Source: a virus. Taken from it: 20,188 nt of DNA. Below the pieces are notes generated by a model. The model was given only the letters and a program-made list of their open reading frames with translations, was not told the DNA's origin and did no database searches. The position numbers and the translations under genes were made by a program. How positions within the stretch are numbered: the stretch's first letter is position 1; the number at the start of each line of letters is the position of its first letter. This document shows positions 1-19,587 of this stretch, piece by piece. Where the stretch lies: UHGV virus genome UHGV-1754446; one strand, written 5' to 3'.

Positions 1-85
1 AGTAAGATATAATCAAGAAGAGCATCTTCTGTATGTCAGCAACTATACTTGTAAAGCCGATGATAGCATACTTTATGAAATAAGT

Positions 86-2650
86 GTGGATTTAACAGAC
101 ACCCTGACCGTGTCTCAATCCTCATTCAGAGCACAGCTCGATTCCATAAAAACAGAGATACTTACATCCCTGACTTATGGCATGCGTGGTGACATTTTAG
201 CACAATGCGCGAAGTATTTTCTGCGGAAAGACAGTCCGGACACAGCCTTGGATATTATAACATTCCTCAAAGGGCTGCTTGTGGGAGACGGAGACTACGG
301 CATAGATGCGGACGGTACCGCACGGCTGAAGAAACTTCTTGCCGACGAAGCCACAATGAAAACGCTGACCGTGACAGGAAGGGCACATTTCTTCGAGCTT
401 GTCATAGATGAGCTGAACAGCGTCGGAGGTCAACTGATACTGTCCGCTGCTAACTGCACGGTACGCTCTGTCGAAAGAATAAGCGGAGCATGGCGTCTGT
501 GGTGGCTGGCGGAGGACAGCGACGGCAGAGCCGTGCAGAACATGTGGAAGGTCGGAGACCAGGCTCTGGCAATGACATCCAATCTTGCCGAGGGGACATC
601 ATATGATGCAGGAAACAGACTATGGTGGAGACTTGTCACGGCAACAGGGAGCGGAACACGGAACATTGACGGTGAGGACAGAAAGTGCCATTGGATTGAA
701 GTGTCTGAAGCCACGTGCGCGGCTGACAGCCTTGAGCCTGCAGAGGGTGACAGCGTTTGTCTGTGCGGACACCGTGGTGACGACACAGCGCGCAGCCATG
801 CGATAATAATAGCCGCCCACTCCACTCCGGATACCGAGCTGGAGAGTCCGTCATTCGCGCAATACAACGGAATCACAAGTTTTTCTCTAAGCCAGTACCG
901 CACGACATGGTTCGCGGCTAACGGCAATAAGATAAGAGGCGAGCTGGATGTGGACACTTCCGGTCTTGTCAGCTACACGCACCTTGCATGGGGAAACGGT
1001 CCGGACGACTGGACAAAGGACAAATCCCAGAGCACGGCAAAAGACTGGCTCATGCTCGGCATATGCACAGACCGCACGGAGAGCGACGTGGCTCTCGTCT
1101 ACAGCGACTATGCATGGTCAAGGATTAAAGGTACTGACGGAAAGACCACATACTTCCATGTGAAATATTCTTCAAACGAGAACGGAAATCCCATGACAGA
1201 GACGCCCAACCTCTACATCGGCACATACGTTGACTTCACTGAGGCAGACAGCAACGACCCCTCGGACTACACGTGGTCACGCTTCCAAGGATATGACGGG
1301 GAGCAGGGGATACCGGGGAAAAACGGTACGGACGGAAAGACAAGCTACCTTCACATCAAATATTCCGACGACGGGGGAAAGACGTTCACCGCCAGCAACG
1401 GTGAGACACCGGGTGCGTGGCTCGGGCAATGCGTAGACTTCAACTCATATGACCCGACAAGCGTTACCTCATATAAGTGGACACGGATACGCGGTGAGGA
1501 CGGAGCGGACGGAAGTGACGGTGAACCCGGCACGGACGGGCAGGACGGATTCTCGTGGGCACTTGACCCTGCCGCCATAACATTGGAGGCTGACAGTGAC
1601 GGTGTGGTGAGCATGCAGGATGCGACATCACGTCTGCGCGCATGGCTCGGCACGCGCGAGATGACTGTCACCATTACCGCCATAGAGCCAGTGCACTGTC
1701 TTGCGTCACGCAACGGGGCGCAGGTTACAATAACCGCAATAGGGACATATACGGCAGACTGGGGAGGTTCGGTGCCGTACGGAGCGGGATGGGTGCAGAT
1801 TACGGCACAGGCAACACTGGGAGGAGAGACCCGCAGTGTGAGCTGCCGCCTGTCCTTCACTGTATCGTCCATGGCACTCTCATCGCAGATTAAGGCTGAG
1901 ACGGACAGCATAAGCCTTAAAGTCGGCTATCTTGGGGCAAAGGACGGAAACATGGTGACCACTCCTGACATATTCCTGACAGGGAACGGGAACAAGACAT
2001 ACACAATCGGGGACATGTCAAGCCTGCGCGGAAAGACAATAACGGTATCATGCCTTGTCAAGACCGTATCCGCGGTTCCGGCGGCATCTGGCAACAGACG
2101 TATCGGCATGGAGCCCATGGTACGGTATGCCGACGGCAGCACGCAGTATCTCGGAACATGGAGGCAGATAACATCCACGGACACGTTCGAGGGACGCATA
2201 AGCTCCACACACAGGATACAGGATAAGGCTGTGGCGTCGGTAGAACAGTGTAACCTGTATATACAGGGCATATCATCAGGATACTCGTCCGTATCGCGTC
2301 CAAAGATAGAGACAGGTGCGGACGCGACAGACTGGGGACTCAGCGCGGAGGACAGGCTTAAAAGACCGAATCTTCTTCCAGGAACATCGGACTTCAGCCA
2401 ATGCACCGTACAGGATACCGTAGAGGCAGGAGCATACACGACACCTTACGGAGAAAAAATAAGCGTGGCACACGGTGTGAACGAAGCCGGGACATCATAC
2501 AAGGACGTCATCACATGGCGCAACGTGGTGCCCGAGCCGGGCGTACAGTATACGCTCTCATTCTGGGCGCGCGGCACAGGCAGCATCGGCTCGTACCGAA
2601 CTGCACCGACTGGGTCACAAGTCCGGGGACGAAGAACCAGACAGGTGTGA
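86..2650 (+). CDS. Phage tail fibre / receptor-binding protein, N-terminal and central part (probably 5'-truncated by the window edge; 3' end set by a frameshift)
   Basis: 854-aa ORF; the same frame is open from nt 2 to 86, so the gene likely begins upstream of the window (86 is a GTG). Three tandem ~60-aa repeats ([ST]Y.H[LVI].[WY]S ... Y.W[ST]R[IF].G) joined by Gly-X-Y collagen-like linkers (GTDGKT, GEDGADGSDGEPGTDGQDG), typical of phage fibres. The C-terminus (YTLSFWARGTGSIGSY) is the first half of a CBM-like jelly-roll domain whose second half lies in another frame downstream. Confidence 0.8.
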   Translation: MDLTDTLTVSQSSFRAQLDSIKTEILTSLTYGMRGDILAQCAKYFLRKDSPDTALDIITFLKGLLVGDGDYGIDADGTARLKKLLADEATMKTLTVTGRAHFFELVIDELNSVGGQLILSAANCTVRSVERISGAWRLWWLAEDSDGRAVQNMWKVGDQALAMTSNLAEGTSYDAGNRLWWRLVTATGSGTRNIDGEDRKCHWIEVSEATCAADSLEPAEGDSVCLCGHRGDDTARSHAIIIAAHSTPDTELESPSFAQYNGITSFSLSQYRTTWFAANGNKIRGELDVDTSGLVSYTHLAWGNGPDDWTKDKSQSTAKDWLMLGICTDRTESDVALVYSDYAWSRIKGTDGKTTYFHVKYSSNENGNPMTETPNLYIGTYVDFTEADSNDPSDYTWSRFQGYDGEQGIPGKNGTDGKTSYLHIKYSDDGGKTFTASNGETPGAWLGQCVDFNSYDPTSVTSYKWTRIRGEDGADGSDGEPGTDGQDGFSWALDPAAITLEADSDGVVSMQDATSRLRAWLGTREMTVTITAIEPVHCLASRNGAQVTITAIGTYTADWGGSVPYGAGWVQITAQATLGGETRSVSCRLSFTVSSMALSSQIKAETDSISLKVGYLGAKDGNMVTTPDIFLTGNGNKTYTIGDMSSLRGKTITVSCLVKTVSAVPAASGNRRIGMEPMVRYADGSTQYLGTWRQITSTDTFEGRISSTHRIQDKAVASVEQCNLYIQGISSGYSSVSRPKIETGADATDWGLSAEDRLKRPNLLPGTSDFSQCTVQDTVEAGAYTTPYGEKISVAHGVNEAGTSYKDVITWRNVVPEPGVQYTLSFWARGTGSIGSYRTAPTGSQVRGRRTRQV

Positions 2651-3771
2651 CAGACGGATTCGTACAGTTCACGCTTGAAAGCGGATGGAACCGCTACCAG
2701 GTGACATGGAGCACACGCAACGATGTAAGCGGAGCGAAAAGTCTCATAGCGGCACGGCTCATGCCGGACAGTTCTGCACAGGGAGAGATCTGGATATGCG
2801 GAGTGAAGCTGGAGAAAGGCAGCGAGGCGACAGACTGGCGTTCGGAGACAATCACGCACGACGAGCTGCAGGCGACAGGAATAGACATTGAGCACAAGCG
2901 CATAAAGGTCACTGCCGACAACTTCGAGATACAGAACAACTCAGGCGAGACTGTCACCACTGTCGACGAGGCGGGCACCCTTACAGGTGTGATGCTCCGC
3001 ACTATGGACGAAGGACAGGGGCATGTGGAGATAAAGGGAGGACTGATTGAGGTAAAGAACCCTAACGGTGTGACCAACATCAAAATGGGATATAACGGCT
3101 CATACATGGTACTGTCATATTATGACAATGACGGTACGTTCCTTTATGACCTCGGACCGTGGGGACTGTCCGGCAAGGATGTCTCGGAAGAACGGTGGGA
3201 GACCAGCAGCAAATACGGACGCCTGCAGCTGACAGGGACCACATTCTCCACCGTAGGCGACATCGTTGGCAACAAACAGATAATGAACACCATATTCCAA
3301 TATGGTCATGTGTACACGAAAACACCTTTGTACATGTATCTTGCAGGGCGCGTAAACGACACATATCTCAGCGGTGACTACGCCTCCACTCCGGAGATTG
3401 CAAGAGCCGCGAACGGCAGATGGTTCATGGAGCAGGGTAATGTGACCACGGCACAGGCTGTCACAGGAATGTGGGCGCAGGACAATCCGGAATCGTTCAT
3501 GATAGGCTCGCCTATGGACACACCGCCAATGGACTATACGCGATATGAAGATGACTATGCGGAAAAGGTGGATTTCTCCAGACAATGGTGCTCGCGCAAT
3601 GTGTACAGATTCTCGAACATCGGAATCGTACAACCGGGAAGCGGCACCGTATACTACGGCAGCATGATAACGACAACAGCCGTATACATGAATTATGACA
3701 GGGTGCAGATGATACAGATTAATCGCATTGACGATGATGACACGGACACGAACGGAAACATATATTTATGA
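2647..3771 (+). CDS. Tail fibre C-terminal part (CBM-like beta-sandwich plus distal domain); probably the same gene as 86..2650 across a frameshift
   Basis: Frame of ORF 2401..3771. The first ~65 codons from the ATG at 2401 are Arg-rich and look non-coding; protein-like sequence starts about 2590-2650 (LVPNCTDWVTSPGTKNQTGVTDGFVQFTLESGWNRYQVTW ... GEIWICGVKLEKGSEATDW). 2647 is the first in-frame GTG after the upstream stop; the true junction is a frameshift between ~2590 and 2645. Confidence 0.7.
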   Translation: MTDGFVQFTLESGWNRYQVTWSTRNDVSGAKSLIAARLMPDSSAQGEIWICGVKLEKGSEATDWRSETITHDELQATGIDIEHKRIKVTADNFEIQNNSGETVTTVDEAGTLTGVMLRTMDEGQGHVEIKGGLIEVKNPNGVTNIKMGYNGSYMVLSYYDNDGTFLYDLGPWGLSGKDVSEERWETSSKYGRLQLTGTTFSTVGDIVGNKQIMNTIFQYGHVYTKTPLYMYLAGRVNDTYLSGDYASTPEIARAANGRWFMEQGNVTTAQAVTGMWAQDNPESFMIGSPMDTPPMDYTRYEDDYAEKVDFSRQWCSRNVYRFSNIGIVQPGSGTVYYGSMITTTAVYMNYDRVQMIQINRIDDDDTDTNGNIYL

Positions 3772-3793: not shown

Positions 3794-3901
3794 ATGACAT
3801 TGACAACATTGAACTTTTCCAAGACCGGAGGCTTGTGGCATGCGGAATGGACACATGGCGGTGAGGGAATATTACAGATAGACGGTGAGCCGGAACAGTA
3901 A
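3794..3901 (+). CDS. Small ORF (35 aa) with strong Shine-Dalgarno, between tail-fibre genes
   Basis: AGGAGG 7 nt upstream of ATG 3794; translation MTLTTLNFSKTGGLWHAEWTHGGEGILQIDGEPEQ; below the ORF-track size cutoff. No homology claim. Confidence 0.25.
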   Translation: MTLTTLNFSKTGGLWHAEWTHGGEGILQIDGEPEQ

Positions 3902-3917
3902 AGAAAGGAGACAGACC

Positions 3918-4571
3918 ATGAGACGTATAAGAATAGGAAACGACATCATTCTGCGCATAAGGCTTACACGCCGTGGCGGTGCAGAGAACCTCGAGGGAAA
4001 GAAAATAGGTCTTATGCTGCGCAACATTCTCGGCAGTGTGAGCCTTCTTGTAGTACAGTCAGGAGGGGAGCTGATAGCAGGATGGCAGGGCACACAGCAG
4101 CAGTGGACAGGTGCGTATACAGTGACACTCACAGAGGATTGGGGCGAGAACAACCGCAACACCGTGGATGAGGCATGCGCCTTCGAGCTTGTGTCAATAA
4201 GCAGCGACGAGGGTGTGGAGACCGGCACCGTGAACATCGAGCTTGACATGGACATCAGCGTGCCGGGCAACGGTCTGTCCGCCTATGAGATAGCCGTGCT
4301 GCACGGCTTTGAGGGCACAGAAGAAGAATGGCTGGAGAGTTTAAAGCCCGACACGAGTAATTTTGTGACAACCGAACAAGTAGCGGAAGACTATCAGCCA
4401 AAGGGAGATTATGTTACAGAAGCACCTAAGGATGGGAAAAACTATGTACGGAAAGATGGAAGCTGGACTGAGTTTGCAGGAAGTGGAAAAGCTAATGCCT
4501 TTTTTTCGAATAATATCCTTAAATTTGAGAGCGGAGGAGCACAATTTAACAACAACATATTAATAATTTGA
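3918..4571 (+). CDS. Tail fibre protein with conserved fibre motif and GC-mosaic C-terminus
   Basis: ATG 3918 preceded by AAGGAG (the ORF-track start 3885 is an upstream GTG). Contains LSAYEIAVLHGFEGTEEEWLESLK, a motif I recognise from phage tail-fibre proteins, followed by a YQPKGDYVT motif shared with the next gene. GC drops sharply right after this motif (~4340). Confidence 0.8.
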   Translation: MRRIRIGNDIILRIRLTRRGGAENLEGKKIGLMLRNILGSVSLLVVQSGGELIAGWQGTQQQWTGAYTVTLTEDWGENNRNTVDEACAFELVSISSDEGVETGTVNIELDMDISVPGNGLSAYEIAVLHGFEGTEEEWLESLKPDTSNFVTTEQVAEDYQPKGDYVTEAPKDGKNYVRKDGSWTEFAGSGKANAFFSNNILKFESGGAQFNNNILII

Positions 4572-4573
4572 TT

Positions 4574-5308
4574 ATGTCAGAAAAAATTAGCCAAATTCAG
4601 ATTAACGCCGACGTCAGAGATATAGAAGACGCGCAGGCATTACACAAAGGTGATAGTTTAGGCACAATAAATGGACAGTCTTTTAATGAAGGTAATGACT
4701 TAAACATTGAAGTTGGTACCAATGATTACAATGCCCTTAAAAACAAGCCACAAATAAACGGACATGAGTTGTCTGGGAATAAATCAGCAAAAGATTTAGG
4801 CTTACAAGAAGCAGGTGACTATGTAACTCCCGAAGATATACCCGATGTGAGCGAACTGGCAACAAAGACAGAATTGGCAGAAGGACTGGAAGGCAAGCAG
4901 CCAAAGGGTGATTATGCCACAAAGGCAGAAATACCAGATGTGAGTGGATTTATTACCTCTTCACAAGCGGAAGAAAAATATCAGCCGAAAGGAACTTATG
5001 TCACCACGACTGAACTATCTAAAAAGGCAGATAAAATCGCAACCGAAAATGTAGCCGAAACTACAAAGGAATTGCAACCGAACAAGTATTACATATTTGG
5101 CGAAGTTGCCACACTTACCATAACTCTTGCAGCAGGAGAAGAAAATGTCCTTGCTGAATACATGTTTGAGTTTACAAGCGGCACAACTCCAACAATATTG
5201 TCACTGCCCGAGGACGTTAAATGGATAGGTGAAAGCACGATTGAGGCAAGCAAGACATATCAAGTGAGCATCGTCAATAATATAGCAGTCATGGGAGGTG
5301 CAGCATGA
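4574..5308 (+). CDS. Tail fibre-like repeat protein (distal fibre / receptor-binding candidate)
   Basis: ATG 4574, in frame with a TTG at 4568 that overlaps the upstream stop. Fibre-type motifs DYNALKNKPQINGHELSGNKSAKDLGL and repeated IPDVS...QPKGDY[AV]T / YQPKGTYVT. Low-GC segment. Confidence 0.75.
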   Translation: MSEKISQIQINADVRDIEDAQALHKGDSLGTINGQSFNEGNDLNIEVGTNDYNALKNKPQINGHELSGNKSAKDLGLQEAGDYVTPEDIPDVSELATKTELAEGLEGKQPKGDYATKAEIPDVSGFITSSQAEEKYQPKGTYVTTTELSKKADKIATENVAETTKELQPNKYYIFGEVATLTITLAAGEENVLAEYMFEFTSGTTPTILSLPEDVKWIGESTIEASKTYQVSIVNNIAVMGGAA

Positions 5309-7019: not shown

Positions 7020-7253
7020 ATGAACAAGATTATAATGTGGTTTAAGACAAGCAACCGATGGAAGCATCTGCTTGGCGGTCTGATTATCGGTATGGGAGCG
7101 GATGATATATACTGTGCGGCATACGCAGGCATAGGCGTTGCGGCAGCCCTTGAACTGAAAGACAGGCAATGGGGCGGCAAATGGGACTGGACAGACTTCG
7201 GGCTGACAACAGCCGGAACAGTTGTGGGACAATGCATAAGGATGATGATATGA
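7020..7253 (+). CDS. Small membrane protein (two TM segments), second holin / antiholin candidate
   Basis: ATG 7020 preceded by GGGAG; hydrophobic segments LLGGLIIGMGADDIYCAAYAGIGVAAAL and FGLTTAGTVVGQCI. The ORF-track start 6927 would run through the upstream hairpin, so 7020 is preferred. Confidence 0.55.
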   Translation: MNKIIMWFKTSNRWKHLLGGLIIGMGADDIYCAAYAGIGVAAALELKDRQWGGKWDWTDFGLTTAGTVVGQCIRMMI

Positions 7254-11572: not shown

Positions 11573-12127
11573 TTAATATTTCTTATTCCCATGCTTAAAT
11601 GGGCGGAGTCTGTTATAGCGCATCTTCTGCTCGACGTAGAAGTCGATGTCGATATCGTTTTGGTGGCAGAATAAGATAATGAGGGCTACAGTGAGATTGA
11701 TTTTTTCGCAAAGGGCTTCCTTATATAAACAAAGTCCCTCACAAAGATGGTACATGACGACGGGGAATGGCTCATTAATGAATTTTGCGTCTGAAGCAAG
11801 AAACTCGTCAACGTAATGCAGGGATATTCCGCGCAGTGCAGCCAAGTCCAAACAGCGTATGATGATGTCGCTAAGTTCATCCTCAACCGAGTTTTTGACG
11901 TGTGTCTCAAATTCATACTTAAATACAACGTCGTCATCGGCGTATGTTCCAAGTAATGCTTTGAAAAGGTCAATGTCCGTGTGCCTGTCCTTGCGGTCTG
12001 CCTGTACAGCTTCAGATATCTCAGTAATGATAAGCATCAAATAAGTTTCGTCAGGCAGTTCTTCATCGTGCCATCCGTGCGTCTTTGCGGTCTCAAAAAC
12101 TGCTTTTGATAATTTAGTCAAATCCAT
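11573..12127 (-). CDS. MazG-like (all-alpha) nucleoside triphosphate pyrophosphohydrolase
   Basis: Acidic motifs in MazG-like spacing: LMLIITEISEAVQADRKD (E..E) and EDELSDIIIRCLDLAALRGISL (E..D, with the L.LA...GI.L helix), plus a C-terminal K..YNRLRP tail. Family assignment is from motifs only. Confidence 0.55.
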   Translation of the reverse strand: MDLTKLSKAVFETAKTHGWHDEELPDETYLMLIITEISEAVQADRKDRHTDIDLFKALLGTYADDDVVFKYEFETHVKNSVEDELSDIIIRCLDLAALRGISLHYVDEFLASDAKFINEPFPVVMYHLCEGLCLYKEALCEKINLTVALIILFCHQNDIDIDFYVEQKMRYNRLRPFKHGNKKY

Positions 12128-13896: not shown

Positions 13897-14061
13897 TTAT
13901 CTTGTGATTTTAGAGGAAATTTTCCTTGTATTTCCTTTGTTTTCCTTTGCCAAACACTCATTGCCACATCTTCTGCCCACGTCGTACTTATCGCACCATC
14001 CGTCTCCGTAGAAGCCTTCGTTAATGAAGTGGATACATGAGCCGCAGTGTCTTGCTTTCAT
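13897..14061 (-). CDS. Small Cys-rich protein (54 aa, putative Zn-binding), coupled to the PAPS-reductase-like gene
   Basis: Not in the ORF track (below 60 aa). Own translation: MKARHCGSCIHFINEGFYGDGWCDKYDVGRRCGNECLAKENKGNTRKISSKITR. Its ATG overlaps the stop of 14058..14975 (ATGA). Confidence 0.4.
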   Translation of the reverse strand: MKARHCGSCIHFINEGFYGDGWCDKYDVGRRCGNECLAKENKGNTRKISSKITR

Positions 14062-14975
14062 TTTTCGTCGTCTTTAAATTCAAATTTCTGTTGCAGGAAC
14101 TCGTCAGCGTAGAACTGCTTGTAGCTCTTGTCGCTTATCCACCACCTAAAGCCTGTTTCAGCGTCGTTGAAATTGTGGTCGATATATCCGTTGTCTATCA
14201 GCCATTGGATTGTCTTTATCCAATTGCGTTTGACGTGCGGCCAGCGTTTAGCATCTTCCTTCTTTATCCGTGCGTTCGACATAGGGCAACAGATGCAGCC
14301 AATGCGTGTATAACCCTCGTCGTAGAGTTCGCAGTGTGGTATGCCGTTCATGTTAAGGAACTCCCACACGTCGCGCTCCGTCCAATAGATTATGGGCGAT
14401 ACAAGGATTTTGTCCTTACCGCCGACACACGCAACCATGCTCTCCTCATGTTCGCTCCATTGGTCAAAGGTTTCCTCATTGCGCTTGCCCTTTATCTCTG
14501 TGGATATTTCCTCACGTTTTGCACGCCGTGCGCTTTCTTCTTTTCTCACACCGATAAGTGTCACCTTGCCAACGCCTGACGTTTCCTTGAACTCGGCACA
14601 ACACCAACGCAAAGTCCTTGTCGGCAAGATGTGCTTTTTCTTCGCCATTTCGTAAATGCTCATCCGTGGTTTGATTAGCTCCACATCGGGGTATTGCGTC
14701 TTGACGAAGCGGATGACTTCGGGCGGGTCTATGCTCGTAAGGTTCATGTGAGCCTTGAAGCGGACACCGGCCAGCTTTGCGACATGGTAGAGGCATTGGC
14801 TGTCCTTGCCGCCACTGAACGCAAGGTAAAAGCCGTTTTCGGGGTCGAGGCGCAACGCCATTTTCTCCGACTTCCGCAAAAGTTCGACGGAGTGTTCCAG
14901 CTTCCTTGCAAGCGGACGGCTTACCTTTGACATTACGGTGTCGTGGTCAAGCAGTATTATTTCACACGCTTTCAT
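14058..14975 (-). CDS. PP-loop ATP-pyrophosphatase of the PAPS-reductase / TtcA-like (adenine-nucleotide alpha-hydrolase) superfamily
   Basis: PP-loop motif FYLAFSGGKDSQCLYHVA (SGGxDS), plus Cys clusters RWCCAEF and GCICCP that could ligate Fe-S or Zn, as in DndC/TtcA/CysH-like enzymes. I cannot assign the exact subfamily without a profile search. Confidence 0.85.
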   Translation of the reverse strand: MKACEIILLDHDTVMSKVSRPLARKLEHSVELLRKSEKMALRLDPENGFYLAFSGGKDSQCLYHVAKLAGVRFKAHMNLTSIDPPEVIRFVKTQYPDVELIKPRMSIYEMAKKKHILPTRTLRWCCAEFKETSGVGKVTLIGVRKEESARRAKREEISTEIKGKRNEETFDQWSEHEESMVACVGGKDKILVSPIIYWTERDVWEFLNMNGIPHCELYDEGYTRIGCICCPMSNARIKKEDAKRWPHVKRNWIKTIQWLIDNGYIDHNFNDAETGFRWWISDKSYKQFYADEFLQQKFEFKDDEK

Positions 14976-15106: not shown

Positions 15107-15253
15107 CTAATCGTCTACAATGGCTTTTGCTAAACCGAAGAGAAGGATATATATTCCTAACATGAGCAGTACCCATGGGAAACTTGTCAACATCCATATA
15201 GAGGCTGCCACGCAAAGTGCACCGGCATGGATGATTAGTTCAGTTCTGTTCAT
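15107..15253 (-). CDS. Small hydrophobic membrane peptide (48 aa), translationally coupled
   Basis: Own translation: MNRTELIIHAGALCVAASIWMLTSFPWVLLMLGIYILLFGLAKAIVDD. Its ATG overlaps the stop of the radical-SAM gene (ATGA). Confidence 0.35.
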   Translation of the reverse strand: MNRTELIIHAGALCVAASIWMLTSFPWVLLMLGIYILLFGLAKAIVDD

Positions 15254-16155
15254 TGCTTCATATTTTTAAGTTTGTAACTATTCTCATTAAGCCACTTTTG
15301 GAAATACCATAACTGACCGCATCCGCCACCTATATCGTCTTGCCCTGCCGGGTTAAATACTCTCGTATTAAAACCTACGTCATTCATCTTTGAATTAAAG
15401 TCACGGATTAAGTCAAGTTGTCGCTGTATTGATGAATGTACACTTTCATCCTTTTCGCAAATAACAGACAAAGTGACCTCCCATATATCAGGGTTAAATA
15501 ATTCAGAGAGCCTCATAGCATCTTCCATATCATTATTCCCGACATGTACGCAATAATTAAAGAAAGGCTTTCTTCCGACATAAGAAGCCCAAAACTCACC
15601 CGTAGAAGCTATTTGCCGAAGTGTTGACGTATTCGTTGCTATAAGTTTCTTCCTTTTTTCATCTGTACTTTCATGTACTGAAAATTGAAGACCTACTTTA
15701 TCTATTTCTTTCGATAGTGCAATAAAATCAGACATGTATAAATACATCATGTGAGGGGCAGAAGTGCTTACAAGAAGTTGTGCGTTTGGATATTTCACAT
15801 GTAGACTTTCTATTGCAGGCTGCAATGCCGAGTAGTTGTAAAAAGGCTCTCCCATGCTCATAAACATAATTTGGAACTTTTTAATGTCATCAGTGCGGCA
15901 ATCAATAGTAGATAATGCCCCATCAATCTGTTGTATTATTTCGTCAGTAGAAAGATTTCTGACAAAAAATTTGCCTGTTCCGCAGAAAGAACATCCAACT
16001 GGACAACCGCTTTGAACCGAACAACATATAACTGTCCTTTTTTTGTATTCTCCATATCTATAAAGAACAGTTTCAGCAATAGCATTTGGCTTGTCCCACT
16101 CAAACACGAATTTCTTTACATTCGTATCACTTGATTCAAATACTTTTGTTTTCAT
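15250..16155 (-). CDS. Radical-SAM methyltransferase of the RlmN/Cfr family (N-terminally minimal form)
   Basis: RTVICCSVQSGCPVGCSFCGTGKFFVRNLSTDEIIQQI aligns with the E. coli RlmN region [38 protein letters not shown] (CxxxCxxC plus the upstream mechanistic Cys). MFMSMGEP matches VMMGMGEP, STSAP matches STSG, FSVHESTDE matches ISLHAPNDE, and the C-terminal DDIGGGCGQL matches DDIDAACGQL (second catalytic Cys). At 301 aa it lacks the ~80-aa N-terminal domain of RlmN. Confidence 0.88.
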   Translation of the reverse strand: MKTKVFESSDTNVKKFVFEWDKPNAIAETVLYRYGEYKKRTVICCSVQSGCPVGCSFCGTGKFFVRNLSTDEIIQQIDGALSTIDCRTDDIKKFQIMFMSMGEPFYNYSALQPAIESLHVKYPNAQLLVSTSAPHMMYLYMSDFIALSKEIDKVGLQFSVHESTDEKRKKLIATNTSTLRQIASTGEFWASYVGRKPFFNYCVHVGNNDMEDAMRLSELFNPDIWEVTLSVICEKDESVHSSIQRQLDLIRDFNSKMNDVGFNTRVFNPAGQDDIGGGCGQLWYFQKWLNENSYKLKNMKQ

Positions 16156-18951: not shown

Positions 18952-19587
18952 TCAGTCCTCCCTCACTTCTATAGGCTCACCGTCAACTAACTTATACCAA
19001 GTGTCGGACTTTATTGTCTCTCCGTCTACCTTGAATGCCTTGACATCCTTTATAGGATACGTTTCTCCGTTCCAACTGTCACGTTCCGTAAGGACTATCC
19101 AGCAGCCGAGAGCACCTTTCGCCTTGCTGCCCTTGCCTGTCACTATGGCAACAGAATCCTTACCATCAACACTTGCGGCGGAGCAGTCGCCCGTGTTGGT
19201 GGCGGCTGACCAGTCGCCCGTGTTCGATTGTTTATTATCATCCCATTTTACATGGTCCATGATGAACTTGACTCCTGCTTTAATCAGTCCCTGTAAGCCT
19301 ATTTCGGCTTTGATTTTCAAATGGGTACAACATATTTTATCAGGTTTAGACTTGTCAAAATCACCGCTGCCTTCAACTTCACAAAACCTGTTCGGTGTTC
19401 CCGTTTCGTCGCACGGAGCGTAAAAGCCCAGCACATCCATAGGGCATTCGCAATAATGGAAACCGGTATTGCAGGCGACCGCCTTGTCTGTTGAATACTC
19501 CTTGCCGACTTCGTACTGGAAGCCGCGGCACTTCAGGTCTTTGTCAAAACCTTTATAGCCATGAATCGTTTCTGTCTCTTTTTTCAT
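18952..19587 (-). CDS. Hypothetical phage protein with Cys-rich N-terminal domain and TGD[WC]SAA repeats
   Basis: 211 aa; N-terminus YKGFDKDLKCRGFQYEVGKEY ... CNTGFHYCECP; C-terminal half with repeated NTGDWSAA / NTGDCSAA and Gly/Lys-rich stretches. No family recognised. Confidence 0.75.
   Translation of the reverse strand: MKKETETIHGYKGFDKDLKCRGFQYEVGKEYSTDKAVACNTGFHYCECPMDVLGFYAPCDETGTPNRFCEVEGSGDFDKSKPDKICCTHLKIKAEIGLQGLIKAGVKFIMDHVKWDDNKQSNTGDWSAATNTGDCSAASVDGKDSVAIVTGKGSKAKGALGCWIVLTERDSWNGETYPIKDVKAFKVDGETIKSDTWYKLVDGEPIEVRED

Follow-up and report, generated by a model that had tools for sequence, protein, structure and literature searches.

Several described systems bear on a phage tail-fibre gene that is read in two overlapping frames. 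In lambda PaPa, a small deletion splits the side tail fibre gene stf into the adjacent ORFs orf401 and orf314, which lie in different frames, and relatives (Ur-lambda) carry it intact. Loss-of-function frameshifts in stf are selected repeatedly in experiments: they were found in 15 of 21 large-plaque lambda mutants, and four of the deletions arose independently at the same position (PMC2762979). The lambda hotspots are short homonucleotide runs, and the loss of stf leaves the phage viable because gpJ is its essential receptor-binding protein. Phage tail assembly chaperones of the lambda gpG/gpGT type are expressed by programmed -1 frameshifting, with a slippery heptamer and a two-frame arrangement that are conserved across phages. 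Finally, modules of the CBM4/9/16/22 type occur in phage receptor-binding proteins such as the Tuc2009 BppA tripod (5e7t) and the Pa193 fibre (9b45), and host-specificity or antireceptor proteins of Streptococcus, Lactococcus, Ruminococcus and crAss-like phages contain collagen-like and repeat regions.

We analysed a stretch of 20,188 nucleotides of viral DNA (UHGV-1754446, hereafter the window), which corresponds to the metagenomic SPAdes contig NODE_910_length_20188_cov_2.736751 (k-mer coverage 2.7x) of ENA assembly ERZ501762 and is itself included in the set of relatives as L014. The resemblance to lambda PaPa is that a small deletion splits a fibre gene that is intact in relatives, and the recurrence at one site of stf resembles the two indels that we found on a single heptamer. 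However, this heptamer is not repetitive, and the allele of the window is a singleton on a low-coverage contig that may be an artefact. As in the gpG/gpGT system, two overlapping ORFs of the tail module are present with the second in the -1 frame, but the family of the window possesses neither the conserved slippery heptamer nor the conserved two-frame arrangement. The likeness to CBM modules consists of CBM_4_9 matches that span the junction in homologues and of Foldseek matches to CBM4, CBM16 and CBM22 modules and to phage baseplate or fibre proteins (E about 1e-4), although at 12-19% sequence identity and with a model pLDDT of 67. Searching the intact protein with tblastn yielded matches annotated as "tail fiber protein; host specificity", "anti-receptor" and "host specificity protein", and PHROG tail and host-range families were matched as well. 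These antireceptor counterparts align to at most 26% of the protein, mostly at residues 320-590, and no cultured phage covered at least 80% of it by tblastn. The annotated phage collection contained no match in a near-identity DNA search, which indicates that there is no cultured relative.

A single fibre gene in two frames

The upstream part of the gene lies in frame 2, which has no stop codon from base 2 onward (Table 1). The initial annotation had placed this ORF at 86..2650; the end is correct, but GTG 86 is not the start, and the true ATG is located at or just beyond the left end of the contig. The last native codon encodes the tyrosine that corresponds to Tyr867 of P0013, an intact protein of 1260 aa. 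Frame 2 reads ...YTLSFWARGTGSIGSY and then RTAPTGSQVRGRRTRQV, i.e., 17 out-of-frame codons followed by TGA 2648-2650. Frame 1 reads ...PNCTDWVTSPGTKNQTGVTDGFVQFTLESGWNRYQVTW...GVKLEKGSEATDW and remains open up to 3771. It provides 391 native residues after the junction, including the rest of the same beta-sandwich domain: the second half of the CBM-like domain is followed by a conserved linker, ATGIDI...KVTADNFEIQNNSGE, and by a C-terminal module. All peptides, frames and coordinates quoted in the initial annotation were found in the window, except that its peptide LVPNC is only partly native: LV is out of frame and the native sequence starts at the proline (codon 2596-2598).

Table 1. Coordinates of the features of the fibre gene in the window
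Feature	Position	Strand	Remarks
Upstream fibre part	2..2650	+	Frame 2; native codons (n=865) up to Tyr 2594-2596
End motif of first CBM-like domain, KIETGADATDW	2303-2335	+	Paralogous copy KLEKGSEATDW at 2806-2838
Second CBM4/9-like beta-sandwich domain	2363..2838	+	Split by the deletion; 4 predicted strands before, 5 after
Deletion junction	2595..2596	+	CTTCTAT (equivalently TTCTATC) present in relatives; from alignment, three-way comparison and allele survey
Downstream fibre part	2596..3771	+	Frame 1; equivalent to intact residues Pro870-Leu1260, followed by the stop
G4 run	2625..2628	+	Invariant in every relative; 30 nt downstream of the junction
Downstream ORF of public gene calls, P0001	2647..3771	+	374 aa; GTG start at 2647
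Glu980 codon GAG	2926..2928	+	Numbered on the intact protein; replaced by TAG in one lineage of related prophages, an independent further truncation of the fibre gene

The split of the gene is not fortuitous: the break in frame can be seen directly from the two paralogous domain-end motifs, which are 503 nt apart (2 mod 3). The downstream part is real coding sequence, as purifying selection acts strongly on the corresponding frame-1 region of relatives (dN/dS of about 0.02-0.06). Intact relatives encode proteins of 1259-1267 aa (1259 aa for P0012), which exceeds the fusion of ~1230 aa that had been expected.

The break also falls within a single domain, as had been proposed for this large tail-fibre or host-specificity protein. 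The Pfam family CBM_4_9 (PF02018) spans the junction in the intact homologues P0002 (35.1 bits) and P0006 (29.5 bits), both above the gathering cut-off of 25.9 bits, and it reaches a sub-threshold score of 16.6 bits at residues 847-916 of the intact orthologue P0013. When Pfam was applied to the two pieces separately, nothing was found for the downstream piece; the CBM signal appears only for the intact domain or for homologues. AF2 predicted a beta sandwich for the intact domain with moderate confidence (pLDDT 67, pTM 0.61); its best solved matches in Foldseek are CBM4, CBM16 and CBM22 modules (E from 7e-5 to 5e-4, TM of 0.45-0.58 on the target), and a PDB sequence search with the intact protein gave no match. 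Carbohydrate binding by this domain is putative. The junction is located inside one of its beta strands, GSY-FY-PN.

It could be argued that two genuine neighbouring genes meet at the junction, as public gene calls report two products, of 882 aa for the upstream part and 374 aa for P0001, whose GTG start shares the bases GTGA with the upstream TGA. This possibility has practically no probability left and is already refuted by homologues: the boundary would lie in the middle of one beta-sandwich domain, and the intact relatives as well as the distant homologues are single ORFs across the junction. The two separate genes with a domain boundary that the initial annotation had considered were not found in any intact relative. 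Compared with these relatives, which have no separate gene at this position, P0001 is a by-product of the frameshift.

The deletion junction and its alleles

The frame change of one nucleotide that had been predicted within ~2590-2645 is indeed a net change of -1, but it results from a deletion of 7 nt located exactly between positions 2595 and 2596. Three near-identical relatives (L002, L025 and L027) present one intact ORF with the peptide GSYFYPN. A fourth, L001 (contig Ga0495776_094567, also labelled L005 and L026), presents CTAT at the heptamer, an in-frame deletion of 3 nt that yields GSYYPN. Every other contig that reaches the site carries CTTCTAT, and all relatives except the window and L001 align to the intact gene without gaps, for as much as 2.6 kb depending on the reach of the contig. 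Relatives at 96-98% identity are continuous across the site, and so are the seven distant homologues (18-36% identity) to which we aligned the protein, which read through it with a Y/F-x-Y/F motif.

Across the 13.77 kb compared with L001, the heptamer indel and two bases at the contig end are the only differences of the window. A 20-kb comparison with the ERZ1310104 contig revealed the 7 nt, four mismatches and an 81-nt length difference at a 27-nt repeat. No more than one base, apart from the deletion, separates the fibre gene from those of its nearest relatives. Any inactivation would thus be very recent, and the "decaying prophage" of the initial annotation was too strong a description. Scans of IMG/VR for further alleles, using wide anchors or single flanks, returned the same four contigs each time, and the scans of public collections that recovered the site revealed only the CTTCTAT and CTAT alleles. 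No second assembly of the window's allele was on record in an exact look-up of the 456-aa frame-1 ORF.

The fibre gene is truncated in a second, independent manner in related prophages: in addition to the 7-nt deletion of the window, an amber codon is found in a related prophage lineage about 110 codons downstream of the heptamer.

Recoding, phase variation and other switching systems

The initial annotation had raised programmed or phase-variable frameshifting that would control fibre length or host range. Programmed -1 ribosomal frameshifting or slipped-strand phase variation would generate long and short forms of the fibre, and the geometry fits, with a downstream frame at -1 relative to the upstream frame and an overlap of about 50 nt. 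We consider this very improbable. No X XXY YYZ slippery heptamer is present in 2401-2650, a range that includes the overlap. The shift site defined by homology, UCG UAC|CCG, is not slippery, and a product of frameshifting at this site would not contain two conserved residues. The protein is encoded in a single frame in every relative, where the site is longer by 7 (or 4) bases, and the two-frame arrangement is not conserved. No homopolymer or repeat that could act as a slipped-strand tract is found at 2580-2610, and local folding is no better than that of shuffled sequences (z of -0.3 to -0.4, computed with DNA parameters for about 85 nt only). The G4 run that had been pointed out is present but is not involved in the frame change, since it is identical in all relatives and distant from the junction. 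We also observed that the heptamer forms the loop of a weak DNA hairpin (4+4 bp) whose energy is no better than that of shuffled sequence.

No tRNA, suppressor or other, was detected in the window. Searches for repeats and inverted repeats, both near the site and across the window, recovered only the paralogous domain-end motif. With no slippery heptamer, repeat tract, inverted repeat or tRNA, programmed and phase-variable frameshifting are rejected. Based on these comparisons, the window carries an ordinary broken (or mis-assembled) copy of the gene, a programmed frameshift being excluded, and the deletion is not a translational or regulatory device.

Other systems that alter fibre genes were considered as well. 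An invertible tail-fibre segment of the Gin/Cin/Min type was discarded: the window contains no inverted repeats of at least 30 nt, neither the 30-nt nor the 22-nt site occurs a second time on either strand across the loci compared (the search covered the 42.9-kb relatives beyond their first 13.7 kb), and no recombinase is among the Pfam matches for 15 of the window's ORFs. A target of a diversity-generating retroelement was likewise rejected, as no direct repeat involves 2500-2700 and the changes are deletions rather than A-to-N substitutions. Finally, we considered escape from CRISPR by scanning species-representative genomes with a 30-nt site pattern, which produced only an unrelated chance match, L009, in a Synergistaceae MAG; this negative result is weak because a spacer must cover the whole 30-nt pattern.

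Origin and meaning of the deletion

On balance, the window probably carries a loss-of-function allele of a single 1260-codon tail-fibre gene, caused by a genuine and very recent 7-nt deletion in the sampled molecules. The loss of CTTCTAT would lead translation to stop 17 codons further on. In the truncated product, three parts would be preserved (the N-terminal anchor, the collagen-like and repeat region, and the first CBM-like domain), while the conserved distal part of 391 residues would be missing along with half of the second CBM-like domain. We infer that the deletion would be a true mutation of very recent origin in the few DNA molecules sampled. The genome may be defective and either carried by a lysogen or complemented in a mixed population; alternatively, the variant may have been selected for reduced or altered adsorption.

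Several observations argue for a genuine allele. The near-identical genomes and the relatives at 96-98% identity are intact, and hardly any other differences separate the window from L001 and from the ERZ1310104 contig. A deletion of 7 nt in non-repetitive sequence is an atypical error for Illumina sequencing or de Bruijn graph assembly. Changes have also affected the site and the gene repeatedly, with the in-frame deletion of L001 and the amber codon of related prophages, and loss-of-function frameshifts in lambda stf offer a precedent (PMC2762979). On the other hand, coverage of the contig is only 2.7x, the site is covered by about a dozen contigs of which a single one carries the allele, and contigs of three other assemblies, from ERR321465, ERR209454 and the ULNY01 metagenome (GCA_900522155.1), break within 18 nt of the site, so that this place may be technically difficult. 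In addition, a lytic phage whose fibre is devoid of its distal part would normally be selected against.

Some of the same observations make an artefact possible, though not probable. The real molecules would then carry CTTCTAT and an intact gene of 1260 codons, and the gap would result from an erroneous read or a mis-join at very low coverage. This is consistent with the restriction of the 7-nt deletion to one contig and with the intact gene of the nearest relative, whose contig has the same start and end. L028, L029 and L030 begin 0, 7 and 18 nt past the heptamer, which suggests a spot that is hard to assemble; the first base of L028 is that of CCGAAC, on the right edge of the deletion in the window. 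GC content also peaks locally in the 120 nt that flank the site (0.64-0.66). However, a de Bruijn graph assembler needs k-mers that support a deletion in order to report one, and the site contains no homopolymer or repeat. As judged from the aligned sequence, there is no self-similarity at a 7-nt offset around the site, which makes a spurious overlap join unlikely. Moreover, an independent assembly (L001) presents a different deletion at the same heptamer.

The heptamer might instead be hypervariable, because the sequence is locally mutable, because the receptor-binding domain is selected on repeatedly or because the DNA is cleaved and repaired again and again; an allelic series (intact, -3, -7 and perhaps larger) would then coexist in gut samples and modulate fibre function. 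We regard this as quite unlikely. The only two fibre-gene indels among five near-identical genomes affect the same 7 nt, and we estimate the chance of a second random indel falling within a few bases in 13.8 kb at about 5e-4. Indels recurring at one position of a fibre gene also have a precedent (PMC2762979), and three contigs begin 0-18 nt past the site even though the relatives are free of SNPs between ref 2569 and 2675. Against this, no repeat, significant hairpin (z of about -0.3 to -0.4) or second copy of the site was found, the support consists of two alleles only, and the scans of public collections added none to CTTCTAT and CTAT. The contigs could also start where they do because the graph branches one k-mer before ref 2676, the first SNP that distinguishes the strains. 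This arithmetic was not retained, as the k values that it implies (69, 62 and 51) do not correspond to any standard setting. Nor do known variants account for where L029 and L030 end on the right, at window positions 7161 and 7158.

That CTTCTAT is a genuine hotspot of recurrent deletion and that gut (pro)phages repeatedly shed the distal 280-390 residues of the fibre appears doubtful. The routes of shedding would be the -7 frameshift, other alleles behind the contig breaks of three further samples and the amber codon that is fixed in a widespread lineage of related prophages. If true, this would indicate selection in the gut for loss of the fibre tip or altered adsorption, comparable to the loss of lambda stf in structured environments.

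The wider interest of the split gene is small. For annotation, 2..2650 and 2647..3771 constitute one disrupted tail-fibre gene rather than two genes or a case of recoding, and the intact protein (1260 aa) found in the near-identical relatives is the appropriate basis for host-range predictions. If deletions recur at the heptamer and the amber lineage is a functional phage, this family would represent a natural case of repeated loss of the fibre tip, as observed experimentally for lambda stf.

Frame change and the underlying deletion

The window corresponds to a complete public contig (NODE_910_length_20188_cov_2.736751, assembled with SPAdes in ENA assembly ERZ501762), whose public gene calls split the fibre gene into products of 882 and 374 amino acids. 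The initial annotation had proposed that a frameshift divides this gene and this was accurate at the sequence level, since the frame-2 and frame-1 peptides are both present in the window. Frame 2 encodes the peptide ...YTLSFWARGTGSIGSY ahead of the break and then unrelated, Arg-rich codons closed by the TGA at 2648-2650; the native reading continues in frame 1 from Pro 2596-2598 (PNCTDWVTSPGTKNQTGVTDGFVQFTLESGWNRYQVTW...GVKLEKGSEATDW). Of the ORF annotated at 86..2650, the end was retained and the start was not: base 2 already belongs to the open frame 2, with no stop before GTG 86, which was the start chosen by the ORF lister. Two paralogous domain-end motifs are spaced by 503 nt (2 mod 3), a direct sign of a frame break. 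The GTG called as a start at 2647 and the upstream stop share bases, reading GTGA; reinitiation there is conceivable, and its interpretation as a designed feature is excluded by the relatives.

The 374-aa product clusters at a minimum of 90% identity with the full-length homologues P0012 (1259 aa) and P0013 (1260 aa), which come from two 42.9-kb contigs of one JGI/IMG data set. Over 13.77 kb, the window and the related contig L001 are separated by a single 4-nt gap and by two bases at the very contig end and are otherwise identical; over 23.8 kb L001 differs from another relative, L002, only by one SNP and a 3-nt indel at the window's deletion site. The aligned alleles read GGCTCGTA-------CCGAAC in the window, GGCTCGTA---CTATCCGAAC (GSYYPN) in L001 and GGCTCGTACTTCTATCCGAAC (GSYFYPN) in L002. 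Seven nucleotides are therefore missing from the window between 2595 and 2596; they can be written as CTTCTAT or, with the same result, TTCTATC. The heptamer is intact in two further near-identical genomes: L025 (a 71-kb scaffold) and L027 (ERZ1310104 NODE_1063, 20,276 nt), whose start and end exactly match those of the window.

More distant relatives, which are prophages within 62-276 kb contigs (96-98% nucleotide identity), give gap-free alignments of up to 2.6 kb with the intact gene, and CTTCTAT is present in every one. Seven distant homologues (18-36% identity) are also continuous across the site, where they present a conserved aromatic motif (SYLYN, TYLFN, TFIYPG, AYFYYP, CYLFDP). These comparisons indicate that the intact allele is ancestral and that the state of the window is derived.

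Programmed or phase-variable frameshifting, which had also been suggested, was rejected: the protein is read in a single frame in every relative. The frame overlap contains no X XXY YYZ heptamer, and no repeat tract was found at the deletion site, where local folding was no better than that of shuffled sequence; homology places the frame change at the junction of UAC and CCG. The suspected G4 run was correctly located, but it is identical in all relatives and is not the place of the frame change. No inverted repeat, second site copy, template repeat or tRNA was found in the DNA compared here, and invertible-segment, DGR and suppressor readings were thus ruled out for that DNA. Across species-representative genomes, the gapped site pattern matched only contig L009 (Synergistaceae MAG JAISQC010000168.1), which we consider a chance match: the 7 nt inside the pattern are different there (GATCTCG), and a blastn search of this contig with the fibre gene returned nothing.

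Coordinates of the fibre gene, its disruptions and other features of the window and related contigs
Feature	Sequence	Coordinates	Remark
Frame-2 fibre part	window	2..2650	native to Tyr 2594-2596, then 17 out-of-frame codons and TGA
Frame-1 fibre part	window	native 2596..3771	frame open from 2359
Motif KIETGADATDW	window	2303-2335
Motif KLEKGSEATDW	window	2806-2838
G4 run	window	2625-2628
Gapped site pattern	L009	1156-1185
Contig L028	NCBI ULNY01025586.1	position 1 = window 2596	exactly at CCGAAC
Contig L029	ERZ916398 k127_38965	position 1 = window 2603; end = window 7161
Contig L030	ERZ913625 k127_60033	position 1 = window 2614; end = window 7158
Amber codon	L003	9902-9904	equivalent to window 2926-2928
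Amber codon	L004	9935-9937	equivalent to window 2926-2928
C-terminal ORFs after amber			P0015 248 aa, P0017 255 aa, P0014 259 aa
Shared start AGTAAGATATAATC	window	1-14
Shared start AGTAAGATATAATC	L025	1060-1090	after 16-N scaffold gap
ATGAAAATAAAATATAATC	L001	10001-10020	where window starts AGTAAGATATAATC
Two genes 3' of fibre	window	3885-5308	47-nt segment at 4378, 4881, 4965
Early region, minus strand	window	11573-12127, 14058-14975, 15250-16155	PAPS-reductase-like (PF01507), weak radical-SAM match, pyrophosphatase-like
27-nt tandem repeat	window	19175-19224	inside minus-strand ORF 18952-19587
27-nt tandem repeat	L017	7891-8490

Split domain and neighboring genes

The proposal that a single CBM-like domain is split was confirmed: Pfam CBM_4_9 crosses the junction in intact proteins, with a sub-threshold 16.6 bits for P0013 (residues 847-916), while P0002 (35.1) and P0006 (29.5) exceed the gathering score. 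In the AlphaFold2 model (pLDDT 67, pTM 0.61, moderate confidence), the intact domain forms a beta sandwich in which the junction is preceded by four strands and followed by five, and the deleted Phe-Tyr directly follows strand SIGSY. Among solved structures, this model is matched best by CBM4, CBM16 and CBM22 modules and by baseplate or fibre proteins of phages. The label of tail-fibre or host-specificity protein, without the qualifier "major", is supported by PHROG tail and host-range families and by tblastn matches to genes so annotated. The part downstream of the break presents a dN/dS of 0.02-0.06 against relatives, indicating genuine coding sequence.

Three assemblies break at fibre codons 3-4 with the same two A-to-G differences, which places the true N-terminus of the fibre outside the window. 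The start of the window is also shared by the ERZ1310104 contig. The two genes 3' of the fibre have in common a repeated 47-nt segment encoding Y-Q-P-K-G-D/T-Y-V/A-T; given this repeat, a weak match to the fibritin C-terminus and hits to tail-fibre PHROGs, they probably encode additional small fibre or whisker proteins. In related prophages their place is taken by 447-, 553- and 538-aa genes, with the fibre C-terminus unchanged. The early-region genes may form a nucleotide or DNA-modification module; the relative L017 additionally encodes an intein-containing DNA methylase. Finally, the 27-nt (9-codon) repeat, located in a phrog_4433 gene, is copy-number-variable: ~15+4 copies in L017, collapsed to fewer than two in the window, with the repeat 81 nt longer in the ERZ1310104 contig. 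This repeat is also where the JGI 42.9-kb contigs and several Logan contigs stop.

Apparent recurrence of disruption and status of the deletion

Across five near-identical genomes, the fibre gene contains only two indels, both on the same 7 nt. In each of three other assemblies a short contig begins just past the heptamer (by 0, 7 and 18 nt), and two of these contigs (L029 and L030) also end together. These starts may reflect co-existing heptamer alleles, graph branching ahead of a SNP cluster that begins at reference position 2676 (no SNPs were found among relatives between 2569 and 2675) or a coverage dip in a locally GC-rich stretch; k-mer arithmetic gave a clean fit to none of the three.

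A GAG codon is replaced by TAG within the conserved motif KVTADNF-E-IQNNSGE in prophages L003/L012, L004, L006 and L015. This lineage, found in 62-276 kb contigs of several samples, has an upstream fibre ORF of 2049-2074 aa, and because of the amber codon gene callers report the last ~280 residues as separate C-terminal ORFs, probably including P0018 (248 aa) and P0020 (221 aa). The sequence after the codon is unchanged, which makes this independent second truncation recent too. The codon may be a nonsense mutation of a defective prophage; read-through is a less likely reading.

The window carries either an ordinary frameshift-disrupted copy of a tail-fibre gene that is otherwise intact, or an assembly error that mimics such a copy. 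We lean towards a loss-of-function allele that is genuine and recent: short reads and de Bruijn graphs do not usually produce a 7-nt deletion in non-repetitive sequence, an independent assembly presents a different, in-frame deletion at the heptamer, and the gene was independently truncated in a related prophage lineage. An assembly artefact, which we regard as less likely, would be consistent with the k-mer coverage of only 2.7, the singleton status of the allele and the breaks of other assemblies at the site. The predicted product comprises 865 native and 17 junk residues; half of the second CBM-like domain would be missing from it, as would the C-terminal module and the conserved ATGIDI...KVTADNFEIQNNSGE linker, and distal receptor binding would presumably be lost or changed.

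This disruption is of the same kind as that of standard laboratory lambda (PaPa), in which a frameshift has left the side-tail-fibre gene stf as two ORFs, orf401 and orf314. In a structured environment, loss-of-function stf frameshifts of lambda were selected repeatedly, and four independent deletions fell on one nucleotide (PMC2762979). In contrast, no homonucleotide run is present at the site in the window. The sole lead that deserves attention is the way events seem to cluster at the heptamer.
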